Positions 11,113 to 37,747 of a DNA stretch of 64,000 nucleotides are shown piece after piece; position 1 is the first letter of the stretch, and every line of letters starts with the position of its first letter. Both the position numbers and the translations under genes were made by a program. The notes beneath the pieces are model-generated. The model saw only the letters and a list, made by a program, of their open reading frames with translations. It made no database searches and had not been told where the DNA came from. This DNA is from Patescibacteria group bacterium (lineage in GTDB: Bacteria; Patescibacteriota; WWE3; UBA101185; UBA10185): contig JAFGOI010000013.1 in NCBI GenBank assembly GCA_016926555.1, positions 44,802-108,801 on the forward strand, read 5' to 3'.

Positions 11113-11150
11113 TCTAACTTCACACACATCAAATAAGAGGAGTTACAACA

Positions 11151-12089: not shown

Positions 12090-12099
12090 GGAGGCTACT

Positions 12100-12990
12100 A
12101 TGTCCAAGAGATCAAGGCTACTCGAGGAAAAGTACGCCAAAGAAAGGGCGAATCAGGACGCAGATGCCGCAAGAGCAGCCGTAGAGGAGCTGGAAAGTAC
12201 CTGGCAGGCTCGTAAGGGGCTTCTACAGCGACTCTATATCCCTCGGCCCAGCAAGCCGTCATTCCTGGGTTGGGGGTGCCTGTTCGAAATCCTCTACTGG
12301 ACGGCTGTGTTCGTGCTGTGGCTCTACACACCGAGCATTTTGGCACCAGCAGCCGGGATCGGATTGCGACTGTATATGTTGCACAGGTCAGGGAAGCTAC
12401 TGGGGACACTGCCGCAAGATGTACGCGACAAGATCGGCGGTGATGAGGATGAGAATGAGGAATCAGCCGGGAAAGGATCCGGTTTCTTCACCTTCGTGGT
12501 TAAGCTAGGGGTATCCCTGGCTGTCATAATAACCACCGTAGCAATCACCATCAGTGCCCCAGGGTTGGCAGCCCTCTTCGGACTGGTGCTGACGGGTATC
12601 AGCTTCATCTGGCTACGTAAACCAAGCCGACCTTGGCAGGACTCAAAAGGCTTGTGGCATATACACCCCGCCTTCCTGTACTCCCTCCTTACGGGACAGA
12701 TCGGGTACATGTTCCAGAGGTTCTCCTATGGACCGAAAGGAACACGAATTAGCCGCTGGCGGATCTTGAGCTTCGGACGAGGTGAAAGCAATGTGGGAGG
12801 ATCCACAACAGACATCGACGTAGATGTGACTATCCTATCGTGGTTGCTTGGCGCAGCCATTGTTACAATAGGAAGTTCCGGGGGAGATCCCGACGAAGCC
12901 TTCATACCAAGGTGGGCAGACATCGACACCATCCTCAACCACATCATGGAGAACATCAAGGACGAGGGCGATGGGGAGGACGATGAATGA
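12100..12990 (+). CDS. hypothetical polytopic membrane protein (island gene 3)
   Basis: 296-aa ORF preceded by GAGGAGG, starting 10 nt after the stop of gene 2. It has about 4 hydrophobic helices, an acidic loop and an acidic C-terminus, and is GC-rich. Confidence 0.55.
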   Translation: MSKRSRLLEEKYAKERANQDADAARAAVEELESTWQARKGLLQRLYIPRPSKPSFLGWGCLFEILYWTAVFVLWLYTPSILAPAAGIGLRLYMLHRSGKLLGTLPQDVRDKIGGDEDENEESAGKGSGFFTFVVKLGVSLAVIITTVAITISAPGLAALFGLVLTGISFIWLRKPSRPWQDSKGLWHIHPAFLYSLLTGQIGYMFQRFSYGPKGTRISRWRILSFGRGESNVGGSTTDIDVDVTILSWLLGAAIVTIGSSGGDPDEAFIPRWADIDTILNHIMENIKDEGDGEDDE

Positions 12991-13261: not shown

Positions 13262-15706
13262 CTAAACTTCAGGCCATTTAGAAACTGCAATAGGATTATC
13301 GTATTTTCTCGGAATATTTTCCCACACAGCCTCAGTCACAAACGGCATAAACGGGTGTAACAACTTCAAACTATTTAAAAACACATGTCTTAACACGCTT
13401 AACCCTATCCTTTTACTCTTTATATCTTCTCTATTCTTAACATCTTCAATATATATATCTGCAATTTCATGCCATAAAAAGTGGTACAGTGCGTCCCCTG
13501 CCTCCATAAATCTGTATTTCTCAAGGTTTTCAGTCACATATGTTACTAAATCTGAATACTTATTTAATATCTCCACATCCACCTCAATGAAATCCTCTGG
13601 ATCTAGCCACGGATTGCAGTCACAAGACTCTGTACAGGTACAATGCTTCAAAAACGGTACATCTTCACCAGTTTCTTCCTTGTATGAATCCGCCATCATA
13701 ATCATAAACCTTCCCATATTCCATATTTTGTTTGCAAAATTCCTGTAACCTCTAACTTTATCGGCGCTAAAAGAAGTAGTTCTAGCTGCTGAATTTCCTC
13801 CAACCAGCATACCCATTCTTAACGCGTCTGCTCCATACTTTTCCACAAATTCCAATGGATCTATAACATTTCCCTTGCTTTTACTCATCTTTTGACCTTT
13901 TTCATCGTCTATTCTTCCGTGAATATATACATTTTCATAAGGAACTTTCGGACCATCTTCATCATCCTTTGTTAAATAGAGCGAAAACATAATCATTCTA
14001 GCTATCCAGAAAAACAGAATGTCCCACATAGAGTCCATAAATTGGGTTGGGAAAAACTCCTTGTAATCGTCACCATCAGGATAACGCAAAGTTGCGAAAG
14101 GCCATTGCCCCGATGAAAACCATGTATCAAATGTGTCTGTTTCAGGTATGAATTCTTCGTTTATCTGATCTTGTCCAGCTTTTTTATCAAGACCCGTATT
14201 GATTCTCTTACCCGGATCTTCAGCGCTTATTTCATATCTTGCATCTTTTGGAACGATTACTTTTTGTAAACCTTCCTTAATTTCATCCAAACTAAAACCT
14301 TCTTCCCTAAGATCGTGCAATAATCCCTCATGACTGTTACCATCTTTGTCAATAAAAACAACAAAGATTCCCCCGTTCTCATTAGATTCAGAATCCTTTA
14401 CGTAATACCAAATAGGAATCCTAATACCAAAAACGGTCTGTCTGCTTATCGGCCAATCATGAATATTTTCAAGCCATTTGAGTGACTCTCTCTTCCACAA
14501 ATTTCTATTGTATTTAACTTTTCCCGTTCTTATTGCCTCTATAGCCATACTTGCCAGATTAATTTTCTTGTCAGTCATTTTTACAAACCAATTTGGCAAA
14601 AGCATAGGCTCAATAGGTTTTTTATCTTTATAATCAACAAGAAGGTTGTGTGTGTACTTCTCGTCTATTTTTTCTAAAGCGCCTTTTTCCTCAAGAATCT
14701 CTACAGTTTTCTTACGAGCTGAATGTACTCTCATTCCGGCTACATCAGAAGCCTCTTTTGTCATTTTCCCTTCCAAATCAACCACGGAAATCATGGGCAA
14801 ATTGTGTTTTTTACCTATTTCATAATCATTAAAATCGTGTCCCGGGGTAATTTTTAACGCACCTGTTCCAAAATCTATATCCACGTACTCATCTTCAATA
14901 ATTTTCATTTCTCTGCTATTTAACGGATTTATAGCTACCTTTCCAACATATTTTTTATACTTTTTATCTTTTGGATTTACCGCAATGGCAACATCGGCAT
15001 ATATTGTTTCTGGGCGCCCGGTCGCCACAGTTACAAATTCATCTGAATCCTTGATTTTGTATTTAACATAGTAAAGCGGAGAAACCTCTTCCACATGTTC
15101 AGTCTCTAAATTGCTAAAAGTGGTCCCATGCGTAGGAGAATAATTCACAAGATAGTCATCCCTGTAAACTAAACCATCTTTGTGCATTTTTTGAAAAGTA
15201 TCGTAGACAGTATCAATTACATGTTGGTCCAACATAAAAGTAGACCGATCCCAATCACAGCTCATGCCCATTTTTTTAAGCTGATCTATTGCCATATCAG
15301 AGTTTTCTAATACAAAATTTAAAATATCGTTGTACAAAGTTTCTCTGTCAAAATCAAATCTGGATTTACCTTCTTTTTTTAGTTTTCGTTCGTATACAAC
15401 TTGAGTTTCAAAACCGGCGTGATCTGTTCCCGGAACATACAAAGTTTTGTATCCTTGCATTCTTTTAAACCTTGTCATTAAATCCTGAATCGCATATGTC
15501 GCGTGCCCACAGTGCAGGGGAGCGTTAGCGTTTGGAGGAGGTATTAAAACAGTGTAAGTTTCATAAGTGCCATCAGCATTTTTCTTTACTTCCAAACCAG
15601 CGTCTTCTCTCATTTTTATACTTTTTTCAGGTGAAAAGACACCAAGTTCTTCCCACTTTTTATATATTTTTTCTTCCCACTCTTTGTGGTCGTATTTTTT
15701 GTCCAT
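13262..15706 (-). CDS. valS: valine--tRNA ligase (ATG at 15706 preferred over the track's GTG start at 15736)
   Basis: HIGH-type motif PLHCGHA and KMSKS are present. The N-terminus MDKKYDHKEWEEKIYKKWEELGVF aligns to the ValRS start. The upstream GTG extension would read through a hairpin and U-tract. Confidence 0.9.
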   Translation of the reverse strand: MDKKYDHKEWEEKIYKKWEELGVFSPEKSIKMREDAGLEVKKNADGTYETYTVLIPPPNANAPLHCGHATYAIQDLMTRFKRMQGYKTLYVPGTDHAGFETQVVYERKLKKEGKSRFDFDRETLYNDILNFVLENSDMAIDQLKKMGMSCDWDRSTFMLDQHVIDTVYDTFQKMHKDGLVYRDDYLVNYSPTHGTTFSNLETEHVEEVSPLYYVKYKIKDSDEFVTVATGRPETIYADVAIAVNPKDKKYKKYVGKVAINPLNSREMKIIEDEYVDIDFGTGALKITPGHDFNDYEIGKKHNLPMISVVDLEGKMTKEASDVAGMRVHSARKKTVEILEEKGALEKIDEKYTHNLLVDYKDKKPIEPMLLPNWFVKMTDKKINLASMAIEAIRTGKVKYNRNLWKRESLKWLENIHDWPISRQTVFGIRIPIWYYVKDSESNENGGIFVVFIDKDGNSHEGLLHDLREEGFSLDEIKEGLQKVIVPKDARYEISAEDPGKRINTGLDKKAGQDQINEEFIPETDTFDTWFSSGQWPFATLRYPDGDDYKEFFPTQFMDSMWDILFFWIARMIMFSLYLTKDDEDGPKVPYENVYIHGRIDDEKGQKMSKSKGNVIDPLEFVEKYGADALRMGMLVGGNSAARTTSFSADKVRGYRNFANKIWNMGRFMIMMADSYKEETGEDVPFLKHCTCTESCDCNPWLDPEDFIEVDVEILNKYSDLVTYVTENLEKYRFMEAGDALYHFLWHEIADIYIEDVKNREDIKSKRIGLSVLRHVFLNSLKLLHPFMPFVTEAVWENIPRKYDNPIAVSKWPEV

Positions 15707-15912
15707 AAAAAACCTCTCATTACTGAGAGGCTCCACAAACTAATTTTAGTGGAAGGTACCAACCTTCTCTATACTTTATTTACAGCTATAACGGGCATTC
15801 CCGTCGGGTTCTAGTTTCCTGCGGAGCGCGTCAAAACAGCGCTACTAGACGCAAAATTTCTTCCCGAAGCATCACCTGGTGACATGATCCAAGCTCAGAC
15901 GCTTTTAGTTTA
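15707..15912 (-). promoter_or_regulatory. candidate T-box-like leader of valS: terminator/SD-sequestrator hairpin plus alternative antiterminator with UGGUACC bulge
   Basis: On the minus strand, CCUCUCA-GUAA-UGAGAGG followed by U6 abuts the ATG, and GAGAGG also serves as the SD. Upstream, GAGAAGG-UUGGUACC-UUCCAC...GUGGAG-CCUCUC can fold as helix A1, a 7-8-nt bulge and helix A2, mimicking the T-box motif AGGGUGGNACCGCG. CCGUUA (F-box-like) lies about 25 nt further 5'. The segment is locally GC-rich (visibly above the surrounding AT-rich DNA). Confidence 0.4.
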
Positions 15913-20087: not shown

Positions 20088-21399
20088 AAAAAGGATTGTG
20101 TATCAAGGACAAGCCAAGTGTAATCCAGAACAATAAATGGGTTTGATGCATCGTAATTAAGTAGTGATCAAAACACCCTATAAACACCAACGTAAAAAGT
20201 GGGACTAAAAATAAGGTGTTATTACGTAGACACGCTTTTAATGTTAGATAAATTAGACATAAAAACAGCCCTGCTGAAAACACACCCGCTTCCGAAAGAA
20301 TGAGAACAAATATATTATGCACCGGTTGAATAAACCTCACAGATGTATATATCACCTTGTTATCTTCAATAACCGACGTAGATGTTCCATAACCCAGCCC
20401 AAAAAGAGCATTATCCTTAATTATTCTGTAGTTAGAAACAAGCAAATCAGCCCTTCTATAAAAAGAGGAATATTTTGATAAAAGCGCACTTTTTCGAAAA
20501 ACAGGAAGGCTTAATGAAAATATCAGTGTAACAACAATCAGCAAATAAACAAGGCCAACAAACTTTTTGCCTTTTGACATAAACAACAAAAATAAACTCA
20601 AAATAAAACAGACATAAGACACAATGCTGAGGGTTATTAGTAGATTAACCAGAGCCAACAATAGAACCAGGTAATATAGGCCGGTATATTTGTTTTTATA
20701 CAAAGATAGCTTAAATATTAATTTGCTCTTCTTATTTGAAAACTCCACCTCCAAAACAAGAAACATTAAGAACCATACGATAAAAATAGTTAAATATCCC
20801 GAAAATGTATTCGGATGTCTAAACAGCCCATATGGCGGAATAAATTCACTGCCGAAAAAATACTCACTCGTGATTCCTCTAGTCTGTTTGTTGTAAGGTT
20901 GCTCGCCAAAATATAAATAATTGTTAAACACTGATCCCTGTTTAATTAACTGCATAACCCCTAAAACACTTAGCAAAAAAATCGAAACAAAAGATACACA
21001 CACTATATTTTTTATGAACTTTTTTGTACTGACTTCATATCTCACATAAAAAGTAATCAAGCTATATAAAAAGGTCCTCAAAAAAAATGTGACGGAGGCC
21101 ATTTTCCTTTCGGAATTTATAATTGAAAAGATCAACGAAAACAGAAACAAAAAAAGTACCTGACCATACTTATCAAAAAATATACTTCGAAAAGAATCTT
21201 TATCTTTCACAAGTTCCAAAAACCAGAAAAACAGGAGTAATACAACAAGTAAGTCCTGCACGTATATAACAGGGATTAAATAATCAACAGTTAACCCATA
21301 TACATAAGAATCCTTGACAACATAATGCTTACCTATATTAAGAGGCAAAAAAAACACGAGTACTAAAAAGATGTATTGAGATATTTTCTTGTGACTCAT
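20062..21399 (-). CDS. polytopic membrane protein, O-antigen ligase/polymerase (Wzy_C)-like
   Basis: 445-aa ORF with 10 or more TM helices and a large loop near the C-terminal third. It overlaps gatD upstream by 4 nt. Confidence 0.45.
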   Translation of the reverse strand: MSHKKISQYIFLVLVFFLPLNIGKHYVVKDSYVYGLTVDYLIPVIYVQDLLVVLLLFFWFLELVKDKDSFRSIFFDKYGQVLFLFLFSLIFSIINSERKMASVTFFLRTFLYSLITFYVRYEVSTKKFIKNIVCVSFVSIFLLSVLGVMQLIKQGSVFNNYLYFGEQPYNKQTRGITSEYFFGSEFIPPYGLFRHPNTFSGYLTIFIVWFLMFLVLEVEFSNKKSKLIFKLSLYKNKYTGLYYLVLLLALVNLLITLSIVSYVCFILSLFLLFMSKGKKFVGLVYLLIVVTLIFSLSLPVFRKSALLSKYSSFYRRADLLVSNYRIIKDNALFGLGYGTSTSVIEDNKVIYTSVRFIQPVHNIFVLILSEAGVFSAGLFLCLIYLTLKACLRNNTLFLVPLFTLVFIGCFDHYLITMHQTHLLFWITLGLSLIHNPFYAYNTRDA

Positions 21400-22166
21400 T
21401 TATACTTAAATGAGGCAGTGTAAGCAGGAATCACTAACGAATTATCTATAGAAGGCAGACTGTCCATTCCTAAACTTTTAGATATTAAGTAATCAGCTAT
21501 ATGCGCATTCCTTGATAAAAGGGGACCGTGGAAATACGTTCCCAATGTATTCTTAAATAAGATTCCCTCAGTATCATCTTCCCCATTATTACCATAACCT
21601 CTTTCAACATACGCAAGAGGGGCCATGTCATCAGCTAAATAGCTTCTCCCTCCGTGATTACAAAAACCTACAATTTTACCGCCTAGAAAATTAACCTCAG
21701 AAAAGACAGGATCACTAAGAAAATCGCTATTCAAGCGAGCTACAACATTACCAACACACCTTGCTTTTCTACCCCCAAAGTGTTGCGTGTACATATCATA
21801 AATACCCAGTCCTTCTATAAATGTACCGTCATCCGCTTTATAATAGTGCCCTAATAATTGATAAGCTCCACAAATAAACAAACCAACACCTCCCTTTTGA
21901 ATATACTCATTAAGATAATCTCCTTTATTTTTTAACAAATCCTTATATACCTCTTTCTGGCCTGAATCAGGGCCGCCCCCCATGAAAACAATGTCCAGAG
22001 CAGACATAGCTTTCGAATTTATTTTCAAATCAGTATCAATATGTACAATGTCAACATATATATTTCTTCTCAGGGCGCGCATTGTTAATATTTCAACATT
22101 TCCGTTATCTCCATATAAATTGAGCTGATCCTTATAAAAATAGCCAATAGTTAATTTTGTGGTCAT
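21396..22166 (-). CDS. gatD: lipid II isoglutaminyl synthase, glutamine amidotransferase subunit GatD
   Basis: LNLYGDNGN, ICGAYQLLG (catalytic Cys), NHGGRSY and GYGNNGEDDTEGILFKNTLGTYFHGPLL match Staphylococcus GatD segments almost residue for residue. It overlaps murT by 4 nt. Confidence 0.85.
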   Translation of the reverse strand: MTTKLTIGYFYKDQLNLYGDNGNVEILTMRALRRNIYVDIVHIDTDLKINSKAMSALDIVFMGGGPDSGQKEVYKDLLKNKGDYLNEYIQKGGVGLFICGAYQLLGHYYKADDGTFIEGLGIYDMYTQHFGGRKARCVGNVVARLNSDFLSDPVFSEVNFLGGKIVGFCNHGGRSYLADDMAPLAYVERGYGNNGEDDTEGILFKNTLGTYFHGPLLSRNAHIADYLISKSLGMDSLPSIDNSLVIPAYTASFKYK

Positions 22167-23332
22167 AATATAGACCTCCCAACTAACAACTTACGCAGCT
22201 CAAGCATAGATGAATAATTGGGATAACACACAATTGTTTTATCTTTCATACACTTATTTATCTTTTTCAAGCTCTCTTTTATACTCCTGTTTATATTATC
22301 TTTACCAAGAGTTACACCTGCATAATCCAACCTTAGCGCCATTTCAAGATAACGCGTACCACTTACATAAATATCTTTAGAATGACAAACTTTTTTTAGC
22401 AAAACAGGGTCAATATCATATATCCAAGAAACATCTTTTCCGTCAGGGATATTATCGTTTAGTATAAACAATAGAGAGTCTATATGGATTTTTTGAGACA
22501 TAAACATTTTTAAGTTATTGTTGAAACTAGCGGGATTTTTAGCCAGATATATTTTATATATATTCTGAGCATAATTTATTTCCTCCCCTCGACCATAGGC
22601 TAATTTAAAATCGGAAAGTGCAGAGATACTCACTTCTTCCGAAATACCCATTAATTCAACTGCAATTAAAGCCGCATTTAAATTTTTCGCATTAAACTCA
22701 CCTGATAAAGAAGTCTTATCTAGAGCAGTGTAAGAAGAGTCAAAACCATAAGTATCCAGCGTATCATCCACAAAAAAAGGCTTAAAATATTCCTGGGATT
22801 TATCCAACACTATTTTGGTAGGGAAACTAAACTTTTTTAATCCAGCCTTCCATTTATTTAAAACTATATCTGGTTCAAAATATCTATCTAATTGATCTCG
22901 GGACACATTCATTAACAAAGCAGTAACATCAAGTGAAGAAGTTCTATGTTTGCCAAGTAAATCCAGAAAATAGGGAAAAAACAACTCGTCCACTTCCAAT
23001 ACAGCAACATCTCTGTTTAACCTACCAAGTATATTTGTACCTAAAAGTAAAGATGATATGATGCCATTAAGAAGATTCGCACCGCTTTTATTGCTAATTA
23101 CTCTGTAATTATTATTCTGTAAGATATGACTGATTATTTTTGTAGTTGTAGTTTTACCATTAGTACCAGTAACAAGTATGAGTTTACTCGGTAACATGCA
23201 GCAAATTTTTTTAACTATTTTGGGATATATTTTTAGTGCAATATATCCTGGATATGTGTACCCCGCACCTTTGTTTATGATTTTGGAGATTCTGCTGATC
23301 AATTTTGAAATGTAAGTTGTTATAAGATACAT
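22163..23332 (-). CDS. murT: lipid II isoglutaminyl synthase, Mur-ligase-like subunit MurT
   Basis: P-loop LVTGTNGKTTTTKIISHIL of the Mur ligase central domain, a DUF1727-like C-terminus, and the conserved murT-gatD order. Confidence 0.8.
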   Translation of the reverse strand: MYLITTYISKLISRISKIINKGAGYTYPGYIALKIYPKIVKKICCMLPSKLILVTGTNGKTTTTKIISHILQNNNYRVISNKSGANLLNGIISSLLLGTNILGRLNRDVAVLEVDELFFPYFLDLLGKHRTSSLDVTALLMNVSRDQLDRYFEPDIVLNKWKAGLKKFSFPTKIVLDKSQEYFKPFFVDDTLDTYGFDSSYTALDKTSLSGEFNAKNLNAALIAVELMGISEEVSISALSDFKLAYGRGEEINYAQNIYKIYLAKNPASFNNNLKMFMSQKIHIDSLLFILNDNIPDGKDVSWIYDIDPVLLKKVCHSKDIYVSGTRYLEMALRLDYAGVTLGKDNINRSIKESLKKINKCMKDKTIVCYPNYSSMLELRKLLVGRSIL

Positions 23333-23340
23333 ATATCCCC

Positions 23341-23621
23341 AGAGTTATAAAATTTATTATATATATAATACGTAGTAGTTGTAGTAGATGTTGTGTATTT
23401 GTGGAATAGACTTTCTTTGGTTGTGGTATCTGTCAAATTAAATGTATCTGTGCGTGGATAAGTTTCTTTTACTGTACCCGCAGCGTTATTTTTAACTCCA
23501 CATACATAAAAAGGGTTATTTATATACAGAGTTTTTGTTGATAAGATATGAATGTATGTGGGTATCCTTGTGGATAAATCAACTAGTTTATCCACAAACC
23601 TCATAGTTTTGTACTTATTTA
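23341..23621. other. putative chromosomal origin (oriC): AT-rich unwinding region plus DnaA-box cluster
   Basis: Perfect TTATCCACA or TGTGGATAA 9-mers at about 23569-23577, 23588-23596 and 23609-23617. 8/9 matches at about 23453-23461 and 23536-23544. AT-rich (TA)n-containing stretch at 23341-23400. Lies immediately downstream of dnaA. Confidence 0.55.
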
Positions 23622-23649
23622 TCCACATTTTTCCAAAGTTTTTCACAAA

Positions 23650-25050
23650 TTATTCCTCGAATATCATTTGCTTTATGTTAACTATATCTTGCCTTAGTTT
23701 CCCCATTTTTGTAAGTTCTTCCCCTATTTTATCCACACCGTGCATAATTGTTGTGTGATCCCTACCTCCTAAAAATTCTCCGATGGTCATAAACGGTGTG
23801 TCTGTAATATCTTTAATAAGATACATGGCTACTTGTCTGGGGATAACTATTTCTTTTGTTCGTCTTTTCCCTTTTAAATCGGTTGATTTAACAGAGTAAT
23901 AAGTACACACATATTTTAATATTTGGTTCATATTTACAGGTATTGAAGATCTTTCTTTAATCGTGTGCCCGAGTATGTTTGCAGCGTTATCAACAGTGAA
24001 ATCCAACCCGGATGATCGAATGCTTGTTAATACCTGCATGTAAGCTCCTTCTAACTCTCTAATGTTTGTAACCACTTTTTCTGCAATAAAATCAATGACA
24101 TCATTTGGGATAGTGTCTTGGTTTTTGTCTCTTAAATTCCTTAAAATAGCTATTCTCATCTCTAAGTCAGGAGGTTGTATGTCTGCAATTATTCCTGAAG
24201 CAAAGCGTGAAGTAATTCTATCTTCAAGTTTAGTAAATTCTTTAGGTGGTCTATCTGAAGTTATTACTATCTGTTTTTGAGCCATGTAGAGTGTGTTAAA
24301 TGTGTGGAAGAATTCCTCTTGAGTAGTCTCCCTACCTATTACAAATTGGATGTCGTCAATTAGTAGGACATCCGCCTTGCGAAACTTATTTCTAAATTCG
24401 TTAGAAGCGTATTTTCCTCTTCTTCCACTTTGAATTGATTCAATTAACTCATTTGTGAATTGTTCCCCTGTTGTATAAATAACTTTCATGCCAGGTTTAG
24501 ATTGAATAATTCTGTTTCCAATTGCTTGCAGTAGATGTGTTTTTCCTAGTCCCACGCCGGAGTACATAAATACAGGATTGTATTGTTCCCCCGGTCTTTC
24601 TGCTACAGCTATGGCTATTGCATAAGCAAGGTTGTTGTTTCTTCCTGTAACGAAAGTTTCGAACGTAAATTTTGGTGTTAAATTTGATCTTTGCTGTTTT
24701 TCCCTAAAAAGATTTTCCTGGTCCTGCTTTTGTGTAAATAAGGGACCTAGTACAGTATCTTCTTCCATGCCTTCTTCTTCGTATTGTTGCGTTGTTTTGA
24801 ATACTTTGGATGTTAGCTTGCTTTTAGTGTCTGTAGTTTTGTCTATTACCATTTTTATGTTGTCTATGTATTTTGAGTCTATATTCCTTTTAGTAAATGT
24901 GTCTTCACAAATGATCTCATATTTATTGTCAGATATTTTATTAAGAGTTGCCTTGTTGCTTAAAGATCTAAATATAGGTGATTTTATTTCTATTTCACCT
25001 ATAATTGCTTTCCACAATGTAGTTGTATCTACTTGAGTTTTCTTAGACAT
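23650..25050 (-). CDS. dnaA: chromosomal replication initiator DnaA
   Basis: AAA+ Walker A GVGLGKTHLLQAIGN, a C-terminal DNA-binding domain, and a probable start at MSKKTQVDTTTLWKAI. A perfect DnaA box TTATCCACA lies upstream at 25119-25127. Confidence 0.9.
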   Translation of the reverse strand: MSKKTQVDTTTLWKAIIGEIEIKSPIFRSLSNKATLNKISDNKYEIICEDTFTKRNIDSKYIDNIKMVIDKTTDTKSKLTSKVFKTTQQYEEEGMEEDTVLGPLFTQKQDQENLFREKQQRSNLTPKFTFETFVTGRNNNLAYAIAIAVAERPGEQYNPVFMYSGVGLGKTHLLQAIGNRIIQSKPGMKVIYTTGEQFTNELIESIQSGRRGKYASNEFRNKFRKADVLLIDDIQFVIGRETTQEEFFHTFNTLYMAQKQIVITSDRPPKEFTKLEDRITSRFASGIIADIQPPDLEMRIAILRNLRDKNQDTIPNDVIDFIAEKVVTNIRELEGAYMQVLTSIRSSGLDFTVDNAANILGHTIKERSSIPVNMNQILKYVCTYYSVKSTDLKGKRRTKEIVIPRQVAMYLIKDITDTPFMTIGEFLGGRDHTTIMHGVDKIGEELTKMGKLRQDIVNIKQMIFEE

Positions 25051-25154
25051 ACTTATTTGTTGGTATAATAACATTTCGTGGACAGATTACGGGGCAGTAG
25101 ATATAAATTTAGCATGAGTTATCCACAATGATAAAGCAACGTGTGTTGGTTTAA

Positions 25155-25901
25155 CTAATCTTTTTTGTTGATTTTTTCACCTATATTCTCTAAAGCTGCA
25201 TCCCAAGCTTCTTTATATGTGGTGTCAAGTTCATCCGCTAAACTTGAAAAGTCTGGAGCTGCAAAAACTATATTACCAGGATAATCCTTAAGACTTCTGT
25301 TACTGTCTTTAATAAGCACTATATCCATTTTGGCTTCCGCGGCCGCGGTAACTCCGACGACCGAGTCTTCGAATACTACTATTTCTTTTGGTTTTATAGC
25401 ACCCAGATCTTTTGCAACTTTTATGTACATTTCCGGATTTGGTTTTTTATGCTGAACATCATCTCCGAACATTTTTGCGTCTAGACTGGACACGAAACCT
25501 ATTTTGTTTAAGACTTGTTCTGCGACATATCTGGGTGTATTTGTGACCAATCCTAGTTTTAACTTCATATCCTCTTTTAATTTTGCAGCGAGTGACCAGA
25601 AGCCCTCTCTTGGTTCTAGTTCTATAGTTTGAAGTATGTTTACGAAGGATCTGTTTGTTGCTTCTGCGAGTCCTTCGGCGGTTAAATCTTTATCTACGTC
25701 ATATTTGTTAAGAAAATTTTCCCATGTTTTTGTCAAACTAACACCCACCTCGCAGTAGTCTGTTGGTTCTACATATGTGTTCATTTTGAGATTTTCCAAT
25801 ACTAGTCTATGAGCACGCAGCCATATAGGATGCGAATCGACAATAGTGCCGTCAAGATCAAAACACACTGCTTTACGATTTAAAAAAATGTCTTTATACA
25901 T
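25155..25901 (-). CDS. HAD-superfamily hydrolase (subfamily IA, phosphatase/beta-phosphoglucomutase-like)
   Basis: HAD motif I VCFDLDGTIVDS, Lys and Asp motifs in the C-terminal half, and a cap domain. Confidence 0.65.
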   Translation of the reverse strand: MYKDIFLNRKAVCFDLDGTIVDSHPIWLRAHRLVLENLKMNTYVEPTDYCEVGVSLTKTWENFLNKYDVDKDLTAEGLAEATNRSFVNILQTIELEPREGFWSLAAKLKEDMKLKLGLVTNTPRYVAEQVLNKIGFVSSLDAKMFGDDVQHKKPNPEMYIKVAKDLGAIKPKEIVVFEDSVVGVTAAAEAKMDIVLIKDSNRSLKDYPGNIVFAAPDFSSLADELDTTYKEAWDAALENIGEKINKKD

Positions 25902-25902
25902 A

Positions 25903-26331
25903 TTATTTTTCTAAACTTTTAAAGTATCTCCTTAATATTATACCAGCAGCTAGATGGTCTTTGTGTTGCCCTCTTTTTTGGGATATTTCCAGCTCAATAG
26001 AGGCTTCAAGTGCCTCTCTTGAGGAGTCTAGTTCTTCCTGGAATTCCACTGGTTTTTTTGATATCGCTTTTAACAAATTGGCGAACTTTCTAACTTTCTT
26101 GGCCTGATTGGTATCTTTTCCGTCATGTGTTACAGGGAGTCCCAGTACATATAGATCTACCTTATTCTGCATACCGATTCTTGTTATTTCTTGTGCGGCA
26201 AATATGGAATTTTTTCCCGGGATAATATTTAGAGGTTGAACTAACTCGTTTCTTCCGAGTGCAATACCTATATTAGTTTCTCCGTAGTCTATTCCTATAT
26301 AAGTTTTTGCTGATGTGTTTCTTTTATTCAT
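25903..26331 (-). CDS. ruvX: YqgF/RuvX-like RNase H-fold nuclease
   Basis: 142-aa ORF with YIGIDYGETNIGIALG at the N-terminus (RuvX LGxDxGxKxIGVAxS pattern). Confidence 0.55.
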   Translation of the reverse strand: MNKRNTSAKTYIGIDYGETNIGIALGRNELVQPLNIIPGKNSIFAAQEITRIGMQNKVDLYVLGLPVTHDGKDTNQAKKVRKFANLLKAISKKPVEFQEELDSSREALEASIELEISQKRGQHKDHLAAGIILRRYFKSLEK

Positions 26332-27845
26332 TCTCGCACTATTTCTAGGTGAATTTTATCTGTTTCATGTGGGACATATCCGAAAAACGGAATACTGGGT
26401 CTTATTTCTAATTCATATGTTTGAATATTATTTATACCGCCAAGTGTTTTTTGGGCTTCCTCGGGAGTTTTACCCTTAAGACTTTCTATTATATCTTCTT
26501 TGTTTAACTTGGGTACAATATAGGTTTTAAGAGTGACTTGCACATCGGCTTCGGTTGGGGATAATATGCTGTTGGTTGAATTCCCCAGAATATCCACTTT
26601 AGTATCCCTATCACCTTCGTATAGCTCAAATCCTTCGGGTACAATATCCGCTACTATTTTATCCAAAAAACTGTCCAAGTCTTTTTTTGAGTATGATAGT
26701 CCTGTTGCTGTTATTTCTTGTGTAAGTGTGAGTTCTTTTGTTTCTTCACCCAGTTCGTGGCTGTACTTCTCGTTGGTTATGGTGGTCGAATATGAGCCCT
26801 CAATATATTGAAATCCGGTATTTACAGTGTTTTTCAAGGATTTGGCAGCTTTTTCCTCGGCTTCTTCTAAAAGTTCTAATGACAATTTTTCTATATCGTC
26901 CTTGCCCACAGTTTTAATTGTTGTACTTTTCCCACCCTTGAAATCAGAGTTTGCCTCCGCGGCGGCTTTGCTTTTCTTATAGTCGTCCAGTTCTAATGCG
27001 GAGCCTTTTTCTATGTTGTAGGCATCCCCTATGTGTTTTGCTTCAACATCAACCTCTTTCTGCCCGGGGATAAGAGGACTTCCCGGATCTGTAATATCTT
27101 GGGGAGCAAGTGGAGGGATTTTAATATCGTCTAAAGTGACAAATACTAAATCTTCATCGTCTTCTTTATAAGCTAGTTCGGCTCCTTTGTCTAACTCAAT
27201 TTCATCTGTTGTTTTGTTATAAATCAGTACAGTTCCCCTGGCTTTTTCTCCTTCGATTTTTTCTCCTGTTGTTTCAATTGATTTTTCATTTTTTATTTTG
27301 GTTTCAACAGATATACCCTTGAGTATTTTGTTTTCTATATTTGTGTCTGAAGTTGATGAAACTTTTACTGTGATGCTGCGTGTAAGTGGCTGTGCGTTAA
27401 CGAAAATTTTTGCATAGGCCTCGGGTTTTTTCGAGAGCATCTTTAGTCCGAAATATCCTATTATCGCGATAACTAAGGGAATCACCAAAAATAGAAGATT
27501 GAATTTCAATTTCGGAAATTTACGTTTTTTTCTGGGCTTAGTTTCTGCAGCGGACCCTTCAAATGTGGCTACTTCGTCTATACTGTCTGAATCCTCTAGT
27601 ACGCTTGTGCCTACTTTTTCCTCCATCATCTCAATTAATGTGTTTCCCTGCTCATCTGTTGTCGTGAAATGTACGCTTACGTCGTTTTTGTCGCAGAAGG
27701 AATTTATTAGCTTAAGATTAATGATGTTGTCGAAAAGAACGGAGCCATCTGGAACTATAAGTTCTATGCCGGAGTCATTGATATTTCTGATTTTATTTAT
27801 GGTGGATATTGTATCGTCGTAAAGTTCAAGTTCTATTTTAGTCAT
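26328..27845 (-). CDS. bitopic membrane protein, hypothetical (part of VirB4-like operon)
   Basis: 505-aa ORF with a basic stretch plus a TM helix around residues 105-135 and a large charged extracellular region. Its ends overlap both neighbouring genes. Confidence 0.5.
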   Translation of the reverse strand: MTKIELELYDDTISTINKIRNINDSGIELIVPDGSVLFDNIINLKLINSFCDKNDVSVHFTTTDEQGNTLIEMMEEKVGTSVLEDSDSIDEVATFEGSAAETKPRKKRKFPKLKFNLLFLVIPLVIAIIGYFGLKMLSKKPEAYAKIFVNAQPLTRSITVKVSSTSDTNIENKILKGISVETKIKNEKSIETTGEKIEGEKARGTVLIYNKTTDEIELDKGAELAYKEDDEDLVFVTLDDIKIPPLAPQDITDPGSPLIPGQKEVDVEAKHIGDAYNIEKGSALELDDYKKSKAAAEANSDFKGGKSTTIKTVGKDDIEKLSLELLEEAEEKAAKSLKNTVNTGFQYIEGSYSTTITNEKYSHELGEETKELTLTQEITATGLSYSKKDLDSFLDKIVADIVPEGFELYEGDRDTKVDILGNSTNSILSPTEADVQVTLKTYIVPKLNKEDIIESLKGKTPEEAQKTLGGINNIQTYELEIRPSIPFFGYVPHETDKIHLEIVRE

Positions 27846-29142
27846 ATTTTACTCCTGTTATTTCACTATATATTATTGAAAGGCAGGCTAGAGGCAGCCA
27901 TTCAGAATTGTTTGTTCTTCCTGTAGCGTCATTTATTTTACTTAGATCCATAAAATCAAGTTTTTTAAAATCCGGAGGCTGTTTGAAAGGAACAGATCTC
28001 ATCCAAGGCTCCTCAGATACAGTTTCTACAAGGTTTGGAATATGTGTCGCGGCTCCGGTTAGATATACTTTGGGAGAGAAGGTTTTGACGCCGCTAAATT
28101 CACCAAATAGAAGTTCAAGACCTTGCAGCCATACGTCTAGAGTTTCAAGCAAACACGAATGGACAATGGCGCTTTCTCCGGGAGTTAATTTCTCAGATAT
28201 AAATGCCTCCAACACTTTTTCTGCTTCCATGGGAGTTAAACCCATTTTTTCACCTAGATCCTCAATAAAATGATTGTATCCTATATTTAAACTTCTGGTT
28301 GCAGCGATTCCCTTTCCGAATACGACGGCTACATTAGTCGAATCATTGCTAGTATCGATGATAACGTAGTCGGTGTTTTCAAGGGAGGCAAAGTTTAACT
28401 GTTGCGCGATTGAGTATGTTTCCGATCCTACTGCAAATAAGTTAAGACCGCTAGCGTCGATGACTTTCTCAAGTGTTCTTAAGTGAAACTTTGGGCAGAA
28501 AGAGTTAAATACGGCAGTTTCAATGACCTTTCCTTCCTTCCCTTCCAGTTCGTCAATAAATTTTCCGTCCAGTTTTGTATATACGTTTGATGTGGTTATT
28601 ACTTCTAAGTCTGCGTCGGGATTACCCGTTTTATTTAAATAGTCATTTTGGACCTGCATATAGGCTGCTTCTAGAAGCTGTTTATATATCTTGTCTATAT
28701 CTTTTTTCGAAATTGGGGATTTAGTTCCTCGATTTACTCTTACAGTTGTCATTAATCCCATACACATGTCTCCTGTTACGCCAACGATAACTTGTTTGAT
28801 ATTTTCTTCCAGATCTTTGGTAGCGTTTACTACAGCAATTTTTATTGCTTCTTCTACATCGGATTGGTCTATAATTGTCCCAGAGAGTACACTTCCCAGT
28901 TCCAGCTTCTGCTTGTCATGACCTATAATTTTACAGGAAGATTCTTCCTGGTACATAACTAAACACCTCACATAAGAAGAACTTATCTCCAGAGTAAAAA
29001 ATTTATTAGAATCTCTTTGGGACTTTTTCAGGAAGGGTAGCATAACCATTGGCTTTATTTTAGAATATTTTGCTTTAAAAGGGAATTTTACCAGGAGGTA
29101 TTTTGGGAGGAGGCGGTTTTTCTGTTTCGTTAAATCCGGCAC
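27838..29142 (-). CDS. actin-fold ATPase of FtsA/PilM family
   Basis: 434-aa ORF. Alternating beta/alpha segments with Gly-rich phosphate-loop-like regions (VIVGVTGD, YVIIDTSNDSTNVAV) are typical of the ASKHA FtsA/PilM fold. No ftsZ is adjacent. Confidence 0.45.
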   Translation of the reverse strand: MPDLTKQKNRLLPKYLLVKFPFKAKYSKIKPMVMLPFLKKSQRDSNKFFTLEISSSYVRCLVMYQEESSCKIIGHDKQKLELGSVLSGTIIDQSDVEEAIKIAVVNATKDLEENIKQVIVGVTGDMCMGLMTTVRVNRGTKSPISKKDIDKIYKQLLEAAYMQVQNDYLNKTGNPDADLEVITTSNVYTKLDGKFIDELEGKEGKVIETAVFNSFCPKFHLRTLEKVIDASGLNLFAVGSETYSIAQQLNFASLENTDYVIIDTSNDSTNVAVVFGKGIAATRSLNIGYNHFIEDLGEKMGLTPMEAEKVLEAFISEKLTPGESAIVHSCLLETLDVWLQGLELLFGEFSGVKTFSPKVYLTGAATHIPNLVETVSEEPWMRSVPFKQPPDFKKLDFMDLSKINDATGRTNNSEWLPLACLSIIYSEITGVKYD

Positions 29143-31525
29143 GTTCTTGTATGTATTTTTCTACTTCAGCTACTGGTGTTCCGTATTTCATACGTGACAT
29201 TTCTCTTATTTGTGCCGCAACTTGTATATTTTTAGGGATTTTGTTTACTTCTTCCCAATTGAGAAATACAGAGAAGGGAGGGGTTGGGTGCCCATTTACA
29301 AGCAGTCTCATATAGAAGTTACCTATGGGAAGATTGCTCATGTCTTGCGGCGTGAAAACGGGTGCCATTTCGCTTTCGAACACTTCTGCGTCTTCTATGC
29401 CAATTCTGAATACAGCTTTGGTTCCAACGTTTCCCATTACGGCATTTTTAATATCTTCATCCAATTGCGAAATAAACTGATGCGCGACAACGAGTGCGAG
29501 TTTGTATTTTCTGGCTTCTGATAATATGGTCGCGAAGTCCTCTGTAGCGAAATTCTGGAACTCGTCTACATAGAGATAAAACGGAGGGAAGTCTCTATCC
29601 CCGCGGGAAAGTCTTTCTTGTCGTCGTAGAGCTGATGCAAGAATTCTGGGTATTATTAGAAGTCCCAAAAAGTTGGCGTTTTCTTCCCCTATCATTCCCT
29701 TTGCTAATTTTATAAGAAGGATTTTTTTATTATCCATAATCTCTGTGAAATTGAAAGCTGATTTTGGTTGACCTAGTATATTTCTCATTAATCTATCTGT
29801 AACAAATCTATCAAACTTGGAGACGAAATAACCCATTTTTTCACCCTTATGATAATCACTTGTGTTTGCCATTTCGTCTGTCCAATACCTTTTGACTAGA
29901 GGGTCTTCCAGTTTGTCAATGAACTTTTGCGAGTATTTAGGATCAATAAGTAGGCGCAGTACATCTACCATCGATGCTGCCGGGTCCACCATTGCCGTTA
30001 ACATGACGTTTCTAATGGCACGTTCCAATTGGGGGCCCATAATTCCTTGTCTGTTTGGGTCATACATCTTGTATAGTAGGGCAATAAAAGCATTTACTAT
30101 CATATGTTTTTCCTCTTCACTATGAGCTTCTAGCATATTGATACCCATAGGGCGTTCTGTATCTGAAGGATCGAATAAAATTACATCGTTTATTCGTTCC
30201 GGGGGTATCTTTTCCAGAAGTTCATCTATGTCTCCTCCATGGGGATCTATAATCGCTAAACCCTCTCCGTTTAGAATATCTTGTAGTGCTAAAGACATCA
30301 TATAGACTGATTTACCTGTGCCGGTTTGGCCGATAATATAGAAATGACGCAACCTATCTTTATCAAGCATATGAATTCTTTTTTCTACTCCTCTATAAAC
30401 ACTAGAACCTAGGTTCAAGCCCTCTTCGGGAATATTAGTTGGTGCGGGAGCTTTTCGAGCAGTTAACCACATAATGTTTGGAGTTAATACGTCTTTGTTG
30501 GGGAAGTGGAATATTGTAGCCAATTCTTTAATACTGAGTATTGAACAGTTTGAGGCAAGTGTGATACCAAGTACGGGAACGGTAATATCTTTAACACTCA
30601 TACGTCTGTATATAAAGTCGTCCACAACTTTCATTGTTGACCAGAATCCCCTAGTTACGAACTTGTTGTAATTTGGATCTGTGAATTGTTCAAAGGCGCT
30701 TAGCATGTTTTGTGTATGATTTTGTGCAGCTATATTGTCTTTTCCTATAGCTATTATCCTAATTTTTGTGTAAAGTCCTGGATGGGCGATCTTCTTTTCC
30801 ACACCTTCAATAAAGGAGGTATCCACAAAGGTTTTATTTTCCGTATCAGCGCTTTTCTGCTTTATTTTTGCGATATATCCGCGTCCTGCATAACGCCAGT
30901 TGTCGTTAGCAGGTTGAACAATATATTGGACGGATACAACCTCTTCCTCACCCAGTTTACTCATAGCGGACGTAATGGAATTAAGAGCATCGTTTTTAAG
31001 TTCCTCATAGTCTTTAATAGGATAGTAGTTCGGGCCTTTCAGTTTAAGTTCTGTTACTTTTGTGTACTCACCTCTATCCCATATTTCTTGCGGATTGACT
31101 ATATCTATTTCAGCAGACGGATAGGCCGCGTGTATCTGTTTTTCTACAAGAGCAGCTATTTCGTCTGGTATTACTACATAAAAACCAATGCCATCTGTTT
31201 TTGACACTATCTCAAAAGAAATTCGGTATTGTCCTGTAAAGAAAGCGCCCCACAAAGTTTTTCTAAATCCCATAAGGTTAGAGAACATATGTTCAGCCGA
31301 GTCAACTTCTATTTCATTATCTTTTGGGAGTTTTATCTGCAAGAATGTGAGATTATATGCATGCTTCTGCTCCTCGGCTTTTTTCTTTTTAGATATTAAA
31401 AAATAGATAATTCCCAAGACAGACCCAATGGCTACTGCTGTGTATATAGAAACCCAAAATATTGAATAAAATGGATTATTTATGTCCATGGGCAGCCTCA
31501 ACCTCTTGAATAAATTTTTCTTCAT
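29075..31525 (-). CDS. VirB4/TraC-like (DUF87-type) AAA+ ATPase with N-terminal TM segment (VirB3-VirB4-fusion-like)
   Basis: 816-aa ORF with an N-terminal helix, Walker A GQTGTGKS at about residue 395, a Walker B/DE region LYVDEFQNF, and an overall length and ATPase position like VirB4. Confidence 0.65.
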   Translation of the reverse strand: MKKNLFKRLRLPMDINNPFYSIFWVSIYTAVAIGSVLGIIYFLISKKKKAEEQKHAYNLTFLQIKLPKDNEIEVDSAEHMFSNLMGFRKTLWGAFFTGQYRISFEIVSKTDGIGFYVVIPDEIAALVEKQIHAAYPSAEIDIVNPQEIWDRGEYTKVTELKLKGPNYYPIKDYEELKNDALNSITSAMSKLGEEEVVSVQYIVQPANDNWRYAGRGYIAKIKQKSADTENKTFVDTSFIEGVEKKIAHPGLYTKIRIIAIGKDNIAAQNHTQNMLSAFEQFTDPNYNKFVTRGFWSTMKVVDDFIYRRMSVKDITVPVLGITLASNCSILSIKELATIFHFPNKDVLTPNIMWLTARKAPAPTNIPEEGLNLGSSVYRGVEKRIHMLDKDRLRHFYIIGQTGTGKSVYMMSLALQDILNGEGLAIIDPHGGDIDELLEKIPPERINDVILFDPSDTERPMGINMLEAHSEEEKHMIVNAFIALLYKMYDPNRQGIMGPQLERAIRNVMLTAMVDPAASMVDVLRLLIDPKYSQKFIDKLEDPLVKRYWTDEMANTSDYHKGEKMGYFVSKFDRFVTDRLMRNILGQPKSAFNFTEIMDNKKILLIKLAKGMIGEENANFLGLLIIPRILASALRRQERLSRGDRDFPPFYLYVDEFQNFATEDFATILSEARKYKLALVVAHQFISQLDEDIKNAVMGNVGTKAVFRIGIEDAEVFESEMAPVFTPQDMSNLPIGNFYMRLLVNGHPTPPFSVFLNWEEVNKIPKNIQVAAQIREMSRMKYGTPVAEVEKYIQERAGFNETEKPPPPKIPPGKIPF

Positions 31526-31889
31526 CCGCGTCAGCCCGGTCAGTTATTTTGTCTTTTGGTGTTTTTATTTCGTGTAGTTCTGTTACTTTCTCCGTTTTAT
31601 CTACAATGTTAAGTTCTTCTTGAGCTACTTCAGTATCAAGCGAAATTGTTTGTGGTTCTGGGAGTTTCTTTGGTTGCGGAGTTTCAGACACAGGTTTTGG
31701 TTCTGTTTCCGGTGCCTTTTGAACCTCTTGGGCTTCCTGAACTTCCGATGGTGTATATGTCTCGAAAGAAGGTACGTACCCTTCGGGGTTTTTTGGTTCG
31801 GCAGGTTTGGATGGGGCTTGTTGTGGAGGAATATCGTCAGCACCTTGATTATTTAGATTTGTGACTGGAGGTTGTTTAGATACATCCAT
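31476..31889 (-). CDS. Pro/Glu/Lys-rich low-complexity protein, hypothetical
   Basis: 137-aa ORF whose 3' end overlaps the VirB4-like gene start by 50 nt. Several competing frames exist here; this one is chosen for operon continuity. Confidence 0.35.
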   Translation of the reverse strand: MDVSKQPPVTNLNNQGADDIPPQQAPSKPAEPKNPEGYVPSFETYTPSEVQEAQEVQKAPETEPKPVSETPQPKKLPEPQTISLDTEVAQEELNIVDKTEKVTELHEIKTPKDKITDRADADEEKFIQEVEAAHGHK

Positions 31890-31959
31890 ATTACGATTTT
31901 AACACTTTACGCGCAAAATTATGAGTATATCTTATATATCTAATAAATCAGTCCTGTTT

Positions 31960-32304
31960 TTAGATTTCTTCCGATTCTCGTTCAGTGTCGTTTTTTGTGG
32001 TTTTAAATAATCTTTTTACCTTTTTAGTACTCTTTTCCATTCCGGCGGCTAAGTCTTCTAGTTTATCTTCTATTACCGCGCTTGTATCTGAGATATTTTC
32101 TGAAACAGTCTCTACCATGTCTCCGATTTTTGCTTTTACGTTATCGACCGCTTCCTTGCCTTTGTCTAGAGCGTCCTCTCCCGCCTCTTTTATTTTCTTT
32201 CGGGTTTCTTTACCGGGAGCTGGAGCGAACAGCATTCCTAATAACGCTCCAAGCGCTGCTCCTAAGGCGGCCCCCTTAACAAATGATTTCTTTGAACCTG
32301 TCAT
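31960..32304 (-). CDS. YtxH-like small membrane/stress protein
   Basis: An N-terminal Gly/Ala-rich helix (GAALGAALGALLGMLFAPAPGK) followed by a charged coiled segment, the architecture of YtxH/DUF948-like proteins. Confidence 0.45.
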   Translation of the reverse strand: MTGSKKSFVKGAALGAALGALLGMLFAPAPGKETRKKIKEAGEDALDKGKEAVDNVKAKIGDMVETVSENISDTSAVIEDKLEDLAAGMEKSTKKVKRLFKTTKNDTERESEEI

Positions 32305-32305
32305 A

Positions 32306-32578
32306 TTAATCCTCCTTGTATTTAGAATTATCTATAAGACTGCTGATACCTTTAACAGCCCTAACACTTTCGGAAATTCCTGAGATAAATCCTGCAATTG
32401 TTGATACAGGACCTGATACAGCCCCTGTAACATCGCCTACGTCATCTAATACCCTGTTTGCCTTTTTCACGGTTTCGAGAAAATTTTTCAGAACCAACAC
32501 CAAATAAACCCCAACGAAGGTAAGATTGGCAGCCAGTATTATAAGAACTATTATTAATGTGACCTGTAAGTAGTCCAT
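32306..32578 (-). CDS. small membrane protein (DUF948-like)
   Basis: 90-aa ORF with an N-terminal TM helix and an amphipathic C-terminal region, adjacent to the YtxH-like gene. Confidence 0.4.
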   Translation of the reverse strand: MDYLQVTLIIVLIILAANLTFVGVYLVLVLKNFLETVKKANRVLDDVGDVTGAVSGPVSTIAGFISGISESVRAVKGISSLIDNSKYKED

Positions 32579-32628
32579 AGAGCAGTACTTAGATTATATC
32601 TTAGTGATGTGTACAGTCAACGTTTTAG

Positions 32629-34548: not shown

Positions 34549-34562
34549 TTTATAATCCTCCT

Positions 34563-35129: not shown

Positions 35130-35148
35130 AAAATTTCCCTAAATAAAT

Positions 35149-35874: not shown

Positions 35875-35912
35875 TTATGAACCTTTCTGGACAGAATGAA
35901 AAAGCCACTGTG

Positions 35913-35948: not shown

Positions 35949-35960
35949 GCTGTTAGAACT

Positions 35961-37733: not shown

Positions 37734-37747
37734 GGAGTGATTTTACA

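Follow-up and report, generated by a model that had tools for sequence, protein, structure and literature searches.

In Escherichia coli, the chromosomal replication origin oriC has gidA and mioC as its neighbours and lies about 40 kb away from dnaA, and it uses 13-mer repeats, binding sites for IHF and Fis and a control by GATC sites and SeqA. For Bacillus subtilis, a basal unwinding system (BUS) was described (Richardson 2016/2019; Pelliciari 2021/2023), and the incC part of its oriC, situated between dnaA and dnaN, contains the DnaA-boxes 6 and 7, the DnaA-trios and an AT-rich element. The BUS was defined by a DnaA box with ≤2 mismatches at a distance of 0-16 bp from the trios and by a second box with ≤4 mismatches; the consensus of the trios is 3'-GAT-5', they follow the rule (.A.){3,}, and the box-to-trio spacer peaks at 10-13 bp (PMC8287927). 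In Clostridioides difficile the origin is bipartite: upstream of dnaA there are 9-19 boxes, the context being rnpA-rpmH-dnaA-dnaN, and oriC2 lies downstream of dnaA (PMC7561715). In work on the Patescibacteria, the dnaA gene itself was used as a proxy for the origin (PMC12102498), and in the literature no description of an origin from WWE3 or from Patescibacteria was found at the resolution given here. We analyzed a stretch of 64,000 nucleotides from a Patescibacteria group bacterium (contig JAFGOI010000013.1, positions 44,802 to 108,801; in the following the window), and the element in question is the gap between dnaA and murT, which is predicted from its sequence, with a probability of roughly 0.88, to be the chromosomal oriC of a WWE3/Katanobacteria bacterium of the Candidate Phyla Radiation (CPR).

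Judged by its sequence, the source organism falls within, or adjoins, the candidate division WWE3. The assignment of the gap as oriC is made because a cluster of DnaA boxes, the least stable duplex of the window, an array of DnaA-trios, a switch of strand composition and the conservation in nine other WWE3 genomes agree with each other. The preliminary description of this DNA had already proposed an oriC composed of a box cluster and an unwinding element downstream of dnaA, and every line of evidence that was computed agrees with this proposal. The predicted origin is of the ordinary, DnaA-dependent bacterial type, placed in an unusual gene neighbourhood.

The gap reaches from the stop codon of dnaA to the start codon of murT (Table 1). 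Followed in the direction of dnaA, it is composed of a cluster of high-affinity boxes, a spacer of ~130 bp, which is poorly conserved and holds one further box, and an unwinding module. The cluster starts with the perfect boxes a, b and c; boxes d and e, which are weaker, come next. The unwinding module encompasses two co-oriented degenerate boxes, a 4-nt spacer, the DnaA-trios, an AT-rich element of 28 bp and a single box in opposing orientation. The three perfect boxes and the at least two boxes matching in eight of nine positions, as counted before, were recovered (boxes a to c, and box e and the mid-spacer box, respectively), so that five boxes with ≤1 mismatch are found within 175 bp, three of them perfect, and eight or nine if the degenerate ones are counted. 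The gap thereby agrees with the criterion of Mackiewicz for the box cluster of an oriC, which asks for at least three DnaA boxes with an average spacing of <100 bp (as cited in PMC7561715). The whole window contains seven perfect boxes compared to 0.81 expected from shuffles, with 0 of 100 shuffles reaching seven, and five of the seven are located within 1.6 kb around dnaA. For the 317-bp gap alone, 0.004 perfect boxes are expected compared to the three observed (P(≥3) ~1e-8). The density of boxes with ≤1 mismatch amounts to 15.8 per kb in the gap versus 0.41 per kb elsewhere and is thereby above the background, a density at background level having been named in the preliminary description as a finding that would speak against an origin.

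Table 1. Features of the dnaA–murT region, given in positions and strands of the window.
Feature	Position	Strand	Remarks
Predicted oriC, whole dnaA–murT intergenic region	23333..23649	.	317 bp, 70% A+T; strand-composition switch here
Box a, perfect TTATCCACA	23619..23627	+	Points away from the unwinding element; aligned box in 10/10 WWE3 genomes, majority fraction 0.89
Box b, perfect	23588..23596	+	One arm of the inverted pair TGTGGATAA-N10-TTATCCACA
Box c, perfect	23569..23577	-	Opposite arm of the inverted pair; oriented toward the unwinding element
Box d, ATACCCACA, 2 mismatches	23557..23565	-	3 nt past box c; majority fraction 0.78 (10 genomes)
Box e, TTATCAACA, 1 mismatch	23536..23544	-	33 nt from the start of box c; majority fraction 0.91
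Mid-spacer box, TTATCCACG, 1 mismatch	23453..23461	-	Faces the unwinding element; conservation only partial
Tandem co-oriented degenerate boxes f and g	23392..23408	-	Predicted anchor of the unwinding module; 8-nt register
DnaA-trio array	23370..23387	+	ACG TAG TAG TTG TAG TAG, i.e., 3'-GAT-5' from the box side
AT-rich DNA unwinding element (predicted)	23342..23369	.	23342-23372 is 87% A+T; conserved core TATTATATATA
Distal box h, ATATCCCCA, 2 mismatches	23333..23341	+	Faces the trios across the AT tract
dnaA	23650..25050	-	466 aa from the public start; longest open reading frame reaches 25074
Single perfect DnaA box	25119..25127	+	77 nt upstream of the dnaA start
murT	22163..23332	-	Pfam MurT_C 1e-24; first gene of the leftward replichore; in the usual position of dnaN
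108-aa open reading frame, public hypothetical protein MBN1162824.1	23320..23646	-	Judged spurious

On the minus strand, the unwinding module reads from 23408 to 23330 as TATTCCACA·AATACACA·ACAT·CTA CTA CAA CTA CTA CGT·ATTATATATATAATAAATTTTATAAC·TC·TGGGGATAT·ATG, the last triplet being the start codon of murT. Box f (TATTCCACA, 23400-08) has two mismatches and box g (AAATACACA, 23392-23400) has three, and the start of the first trio is 12 nt away from box f and 4 nt from box g. Compared with the BUS definition, box f with its two mismatches stands 12 nt before the first CTA, within the range given for the first box; box g, co-oriented and with three mismatches, lies within the limit for the second box, and it overlaps the first one by 1 nt instead of being 0-3 bp apart. 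The in-phase TAG array at 23373-23387 is the only place on both strands of the window where at least four of five in-phase triplets are TAG, while 0.04 such places are expected under a first-order Markov model. The adjoining sequence is AT-rich and of low duplex stability: positions 23341-23400 contain 80% A+T versus 61% in the window, and the least stable duplexes of 20, 30 and 40 bp, calculated by nearest-neighbour free energy, are all located within 23341-23386, each ranking first of ~64,000. It had been described that a 60-bp AT-rich tract with TATATATATA is placed next to the perfect boxes. The tract itself stands, including TATATATATA, which occurs once in the window, at 23358. The adjacency does not, as tract and perfect boxes are ~170 bp apart, and what the tract adjoins are the two degenerate boxes and the trinucleotide array.

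To put these elements together, a composite pattern was used, consisting of a box with ≤2 mismatches, a spacer of 0-16 nt, CTA as the first trio and in ≥3 of five trios, and a following stretch of ≥80% A+T. Among the 302 candidate boxes of the window it matches once, at 23408 on the minus strand with a spacer of 12 nt. When 163 dnaA loci were scanned, which stem from Bacillota, Chloroflexota, CPR and further groups, the pattern was found ≤700 nt downstream of dnaA in 54 loci and once in the other 3.9 Mb, and the modal spacer of the matches is 12 nt, the same as in the window. The DnaA matches from metagenomes, among those listed 36-50% identical, were used only as the background set for the BUS pattern. 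Taken as sequence, a trio array in the 12-nt geometry beside the least stable duplex is to be read as a signature of unwinding and not of an operator.

Modelled on the BUS of B. subtilis, ATP-bound DnaA would first occupy the strong boxes and would then cooperatively fill the weaker boxes facing right. From boxes f and g, the DnaA oligomer would extend onto the strand carrying the 3'-GAT-5' trios, i.e., the plus strand of the window with its TAG triplets, capture the trio bases and melt the adjacent AT tract at ~23342-23372 for helicase loading, whereupon the forks would depart bidirectionally. Established by observation are the elements in the sequence with their statistics and conservation, the switch in composition and the conserved residues of DnaA; that DnaA binds, unwinds and fires at the predicted origin is what we infer.

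The protein encoded by dnaA fits to this scheme. It is intact and was assigned by the Pfam families Bac_DnaA (9.7e-66) and Bac_DnaA_C (1.6e-27), covering the AAA+ domain and the DNA-binding domain IV, and a public protein identical to it (P0001) starts at 25050. The longest open reading frame (ORF) begins eight codons further upstream (MLLYQQIS before MSKK...), and the shorter form agrees with the lengths of the relatives, 459-472 aa. The window DnaA shares 56-67% identity with many DnaA proteins of WWE3, with P0002 being the closest relative (67%). It aligns end to end with chain A of 8BTG, B. subtilis DnaA from the cryo-EM complex with the BUS (4e-103), and the signatures PRQxAMYL and GGRDHTT align with solved DnaA structures. 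The residues capturing the trios in B. subtilis, N187, I190, I193, R202 and E228 (listed in PMC10721633), have identical equivalents in the window DnaA, according to the alignment with 8BTG chain A.

For comparison, the dnaA neighbourhoods of nine WWE3 genomes were used (L001 and L161-L168), giving ten genomes together with the window. Such a comparison of the dnaA flanks had been suggested in the preliminary description, and it revealed that the layout is common to all nine. In the relatives, a box follows the stop codon of dnaA, then comes the inverted pair TGTGGATAA-N10-TTATCCACA in an invariant 19-nt register, then two weaker boxes 12 and 33 nt past the start of the second arm, and then a variable spacer. 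The start-to-start spacing of 19 nt between the arms, boxes b and c of the window, is identical in 10/10 genomes, with a column identity of 0.97. The unwinding module can be aligned gap-free and in phase across the ten genomes: the tandem boxes show the arrangement NCACA-NNN-NNACA in all ten, the first trio is CTA throughout, six to ten of the ten genomes retain the middle T in trios 1-5, and TATA in the AT core is invariant. A reverse box, either TGTGGAAAA, TGGGGATAA or TGTGGACAG, is located 47-53 nt past the first trio in 10/10 genomes, with or without murT. Boxes, trios and AT core reach majority fractions of 0.76-0.97 versus 0.48-0.55 for the spacers and the loop, and conservation is confined to the former, with none found in the spacers or in any reading frame.

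An inverted repeat directly past the dnaA stop codon could also act as RNA or DNA hairpin, i.e., as terminator or structured 3' untranslated region, rather than as a pair of protein-binding sites, as TGTGGATAA-N10-TTATCCACA is able to form a 9-bp stem. This has next to no probability: six substitutions in the arms were observed in five genomes, none of them compensatory, each arm is box-like on its own, neither a T-tract nor a terminator-like site is present, and scans of the whole window for Rfam families and tRNAs gave no match.

Equally hard to believe is that the gap encodes a real protein of 108 aa, MBN1162824.1, and that the conservation is due to coding constraint. The ORF spans the whole gap without a stop and is publicly annotated, and in L164 an ORF of 92-96 aa at the same place shows 32% identity in tblastn. 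However, no homologue was found among 5.8 billion proteins, it forms a singleton cluster, and no Pfam family matches; the corresponding frame contains 4-14 stops in 8/9 relatives; its product is of low complexity (TTSTTTTTYYIYN); and only the 9-bp box motifs and the trio/AT block are conserved, while the spacers drift. A second ORF of 68 aa (23552..23758, plus strand) is mostly antisense to the 3' end of dnaA, where its tblastn matches map. Both had been regarded as likely artefacts from the beginning, a judgement that holds for the orphan 108-aa frame with its stops in the relatives as well as for the mostly antisense 68-aa frame. On these sequence grounds MBN1162824.1 is considered not to be a real gene, and it is flagged here as an error of the public annotation. 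Called genes or ORFs also extend across other predicted origin gaps: in L164 a gene of 96 aa (11397-11687, plus strand), and in L035, a Patescibacteria genome, an ORF of 97 aa without Pfam match between dnaA and dnaN (7388-7681, plus strand). These gap ORFs of L164 and L035 are likely annotation artefacts of the same kind.

As a general rule, the leading strand has more G than C. With the coding strand as covariate, a least-squares scan of 48 gene boundaries placed the best switch at 23332|23650 for all four measures, namely whole-gene GC skew, whole-gene AT skew and the GC and AT skews at third codon positions (GC3 and AT3). On the plus strand, the GC3 skew is negative in nearly all genes left of 23.3 kb, whichever strand is coding, and positive in nearly all genes right of 23.65 kb, with the AT3 skew showing the opposite. 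The cumulative keto skew, (G+T)-(C+A), has its minimum at 23083 and the cumulative AT skew its maximum at 23075. Rightward of the gap, G and T are in excess on the plus strand; by the above rule, the polarity of the skew is the one of an origin and not of a terminus. The AT3 skew changes its sign at the same gap in 10/10 WWE3 genomes, and the GC3 skew flips clearly in 6/10.

Several points weigh against the dnaA–murT gap being oriC. The minimum of the raw cumulative GC skew of the window is located at 37,667, 14 kb off, and of the skew switch anticipated at the gap in the preliminary description only the one corrected for the coding strand (23332|23650) is found there. The raw minimum at 37.7 kb is a coding-strand artefact: it is displaced because, in the model of whole-gene GC skew, the coefficient of the coding strand (0.107) is larger than the one of the replication side (0.086) and because the gap is followed by a 16-kb run of minus-strand genes, 23650-39388 containing genes of this strand only. 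The GC3 switch is weak or absent in four of the ten genomes (L001, L161, L165 and L168), and an old inversion breakpoint coinciding by chance with the gap could in principle mimic a switch in the 64 kb viewed. Due to the orientation of this run, dnaA and ~16 kb of further, housekeeping genes would be transcribed head-on to the rightward fork, which is atypical; the same arrangement was seen in every WWE3 relative. Furthermore, the third trio is 3'-GTT-5', so that the longest uninterrupted run of NAN is two and the window departs from the literal (.A.){3,} rule, which is satisfied in 7/10 WWE3 genomes as read from the alignment. As alternative origin positions, the skew minimum at 37.7 kb and the strand switches at 39.4 and 48.9 kb were considered and set aside, since no perfect boxes are present there and the corrected switch lies at 23.3-23.65 kb.

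An alternative explanation for the box cluster is that it only constitutes a regulatory or titration site for DnaA, controlling dnaA or murT or buffering DnaA as datA and the clusters of B. subtilis do, with the origin located elsewhere. DnaA boxes double as operators, and the dnaA promoter carries one conserved box; the AT tract and box h are positioned directly upstream of the murT start, where they might be part of a promoter and where box h overlaps the likely ribosome-binding site; and the raw GC-skew minimum is 14 kb away from the gap. We regard this as very unlikely, as the compositional switch coincides with the gap by four measures and in ten genomes, as trio array, 12-nt geometry and least stable duplex point to unwinding, and as the module is kept in four relatives that do not have murT. 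In a scan of 23200-25300, neither a sigma-70-like, minus-strand promoter site in the gap nor a terminator was detected, although promoters of CPR bacteria may depart from the sigma-70 consensus.

Upstream of dnaA, the perfect box reported earlier at 25119-25127 is present, and in 10/10 genomes one perfect TGTGGATAA is found 56-97 nt upstream of dnaA. Its conserved position and orientation raise the question of a bipartite origin of the kind known from B. subtilis, C. difficile and H. pylori, in which the region around 25119-27 would be oriC1 and would cooperate with the gap by looping out dnaA, and origins flanking dnaA have been documented (PMC7561715). Such an organization is improbable, if somewhat less so than a purely regulatory cluster: there is one box upstream but no cluster, trio array or unwinding element, while the oriC1 regions described hold 9-19 boxes (PMC7561715), and a single operator box suffices for autoregulation. 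For a bipartite origin, box clusters are required on both sides of dnaA; within 500 nt upstream, the window has a single box with ≤1 mismatch, and each relative has one or two. The single upstream box probably serves autoregulation of dnaA.

Further perfect boxes of the window lie in coding sequences. The one at 23729-23737 (plus strand) inside the 3' end of dnaA encodes V-D-K of domain IV and is, as judged from the sequence, probably incidental, because the same place in L001 carries no box. Two others, at 59382-59390 and 59585-59593 on the plus strand, 203 bp apart, are located in tatD (59197-59976, TatD DNase), where they encode the peptides GIYPHD and LPLVIHNR, respectively. These peptides are presumably conserved TatD motifs; on this ground tatD was set aside as a second DnaA site, and the two boxes probably just result from the choice of codons within such motifs.

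The neighbours of dnaA are those named in the preliminary description, i.e., murT on one side and, on the other, a HAD hydrolase (25155-25901). On the murT side, a GatD-type amidotransferase and then a Wzy_C membrane protein follow on the same strand, and dnaA is preceded by the HAD hydrolase and ruvX. That dnaN is not adjacent to dnaA was correct as well: among the ORFs of ≥100 aa in the 64-kb window, none was found to carry a DNA_pol3_beta domain, and dnaN does not stand beside dnaA in any WWE3 genome examined. The gene order, rightly called non-standard, is shared by 10/10 WWE3 genomes and reads dnaK … T4SS-like ATPase … pilM-like – ruvX – HAD – dnaA – gap – (murT-gatD) – Wzy_C – SBP – tsaD, with a gap of 300-420 bp and no conserved gene therein in the nine relatives; the gene table of the contig encoding P0002 shows the same order. 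The order dnaA-oriC-murT is thus the norm in WWE3 and not a peculiarity of the window genome. The pair murT-gatD (21396-23332, minus strand; lipid II amidation) is present in the window, in L161, L162, L164, L167 and L168 and in the P0002 contig; L001, L163, L165 and L166 lack it, and there the origin is directly followed by Wzy_C. In four other CPR lineages, namely Berkelbacteria (L038), Saccharibacteria (L037), a Patescibacteria metagenome-assembled genome (L035) and Doudnabacteria (L055), dnaN follows dnaA directly or past one short ORF. Most simply, this is explained by a relocation of dnaN in WWE3, with the origin staying in its place downstream of dnaA.

The run of ~13 genes at 23650-39388, all on the minus strand, includes dnaA, the HAD hydrolase, ruvX, a pilM-like gene, a gene for an ATPase like those of type IV secretion systems (T4SS), ytxH, dnaK, grpE, hrcA, lepA and murJ, and the origin sits inside a one-directional array dnaK–dnaA–murT–tsaD. 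The T4SS-type ATPase (29075-31525, minus strand) matches DUF87, TraG-D_C and TrwB (DUF8128 in relatives) and is located 4 kb from the origin, a position in agreement with the report that T4SS genes of Patescibacteria cluster near dnaA (PMC12102498). Further away, a GC-rich island (9304-12990, plus strand) with 54-57% G+C versus ~37% around it contains an M23 peptidase (9304-11112) and two ORFs without Pfam match, and it is flanked by the genes of ribosomal protein L25 (8379-9044) and of LeuRS (13262-15736), two genes that stand next to each other in L161, L162, L163, L165 and L168. Unlike its neighbours, it has a skew at codon position 3 close to zero, and since the Rfam and tRNA scans were empty it is not rRNA. 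The island looks like a recent foreign insertion.

What is presented here is very probably a base-level origin of the uncultured WWE3/Katanobacteria, predicted in its boxes, trios and unwinding element. An origin coordinate of this kind is useful for rotating genomes and for estimating growth rates from metagenomic coverage. If the prediction is right, the geometry of the Bacillus type, including the 12-nt spacer between box and trios, reaches into the CPR and survives the loss of the dnaA-dnaN linkage, while the mechanism of the origin would itself be ordinary. A more far-reaching, rather doubtful possibility is that the WWE3 origins constitute a distinct sub-type, with a bracketed unwinding element and a location inside a one-directional gene array. 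The AT tract is bracketed by opposing boxes, with f and g on one side and h on the other. If this suggestion were true, the bracketed tract could assemble DnaA at both flanks of the bubble and direct the symmetric loading of two helicases, which the one-sided BUS of Bacillus leaves unexplained.

Among the known systems, E. coli oriC shares with the window the box consensus TTATCCACA and the pairing of clustered boxes with an AT-rich unwinding element at their flank; its 13-mers, IHF and Fis sites and GATC/SeqA control were not seen in the window, where no search was aimed at them. The Berkelbacteria locus L038 has in its dnaA-dnaN gap (6294-6728, plus strand) a textbook module downstream of dnaA in the same order and orientation, reading TTATCCACAGTATCCACA-GGCC-CTACTACTACTACTG / CTACTACTACTA and then an AT tract, with tandem boxes, the GGCC cluster and four CTA in a row; it differs by 12 boxes with ≤1 mismatch compared to 5-6, by a 9-nt register, by the GC cluster (GGCC) and by dnaN following. 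With oriC2 of C. difficile, the window has in common the trios, which lie downstream of dnaA and right ahead of the predicted unwinding element, 5-9 downstream boxes, and a nearly identical trio sequence, 5'-CACCTACTACTATTACTACTATGA-3' in C. difficile (PMC7561715) and ACATCTACTACAACTACTACGTA in the window. In contrast to the bipartite origin and the dnaA-dnaN context of C. difficile, the context in WWE3 is ruvX-HAD-dnaA-oriC-murT-gatD-Wzy_C. As in the incC part of B. subtilis oriC, the module is placed immediately downstream of dnaA and consists of co-oriented tandem boxes, a short spacer, 3'-GAT-5' trios on one strand and an AT-rich tract; the 12-nt distance from box to trios falls into the 10-13-bp peak (PMC8287927), and the DnaA aligns with the 8BTG chain, with identical trio-capturing residues. 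Unlike in B. subtilis, murT or, in some relatives, Wzy_C is encoded downstream instead of dnaN, upstream of dnaA the window has one box and no multi-box cluster, the tandem boxes are degenerate (two and three mismatches) with an 8-nt register and an overlap of one base, the third trio is 3'-GTT-5', and an extra opposing box, conserved at 47-53 nt, is located beyond the AT tract. As far as the sequence can tell, the geometry of the dnaA–murT gap matches the basal unwinding system located downstream of dnaA in Bacillus and Clostridioides.

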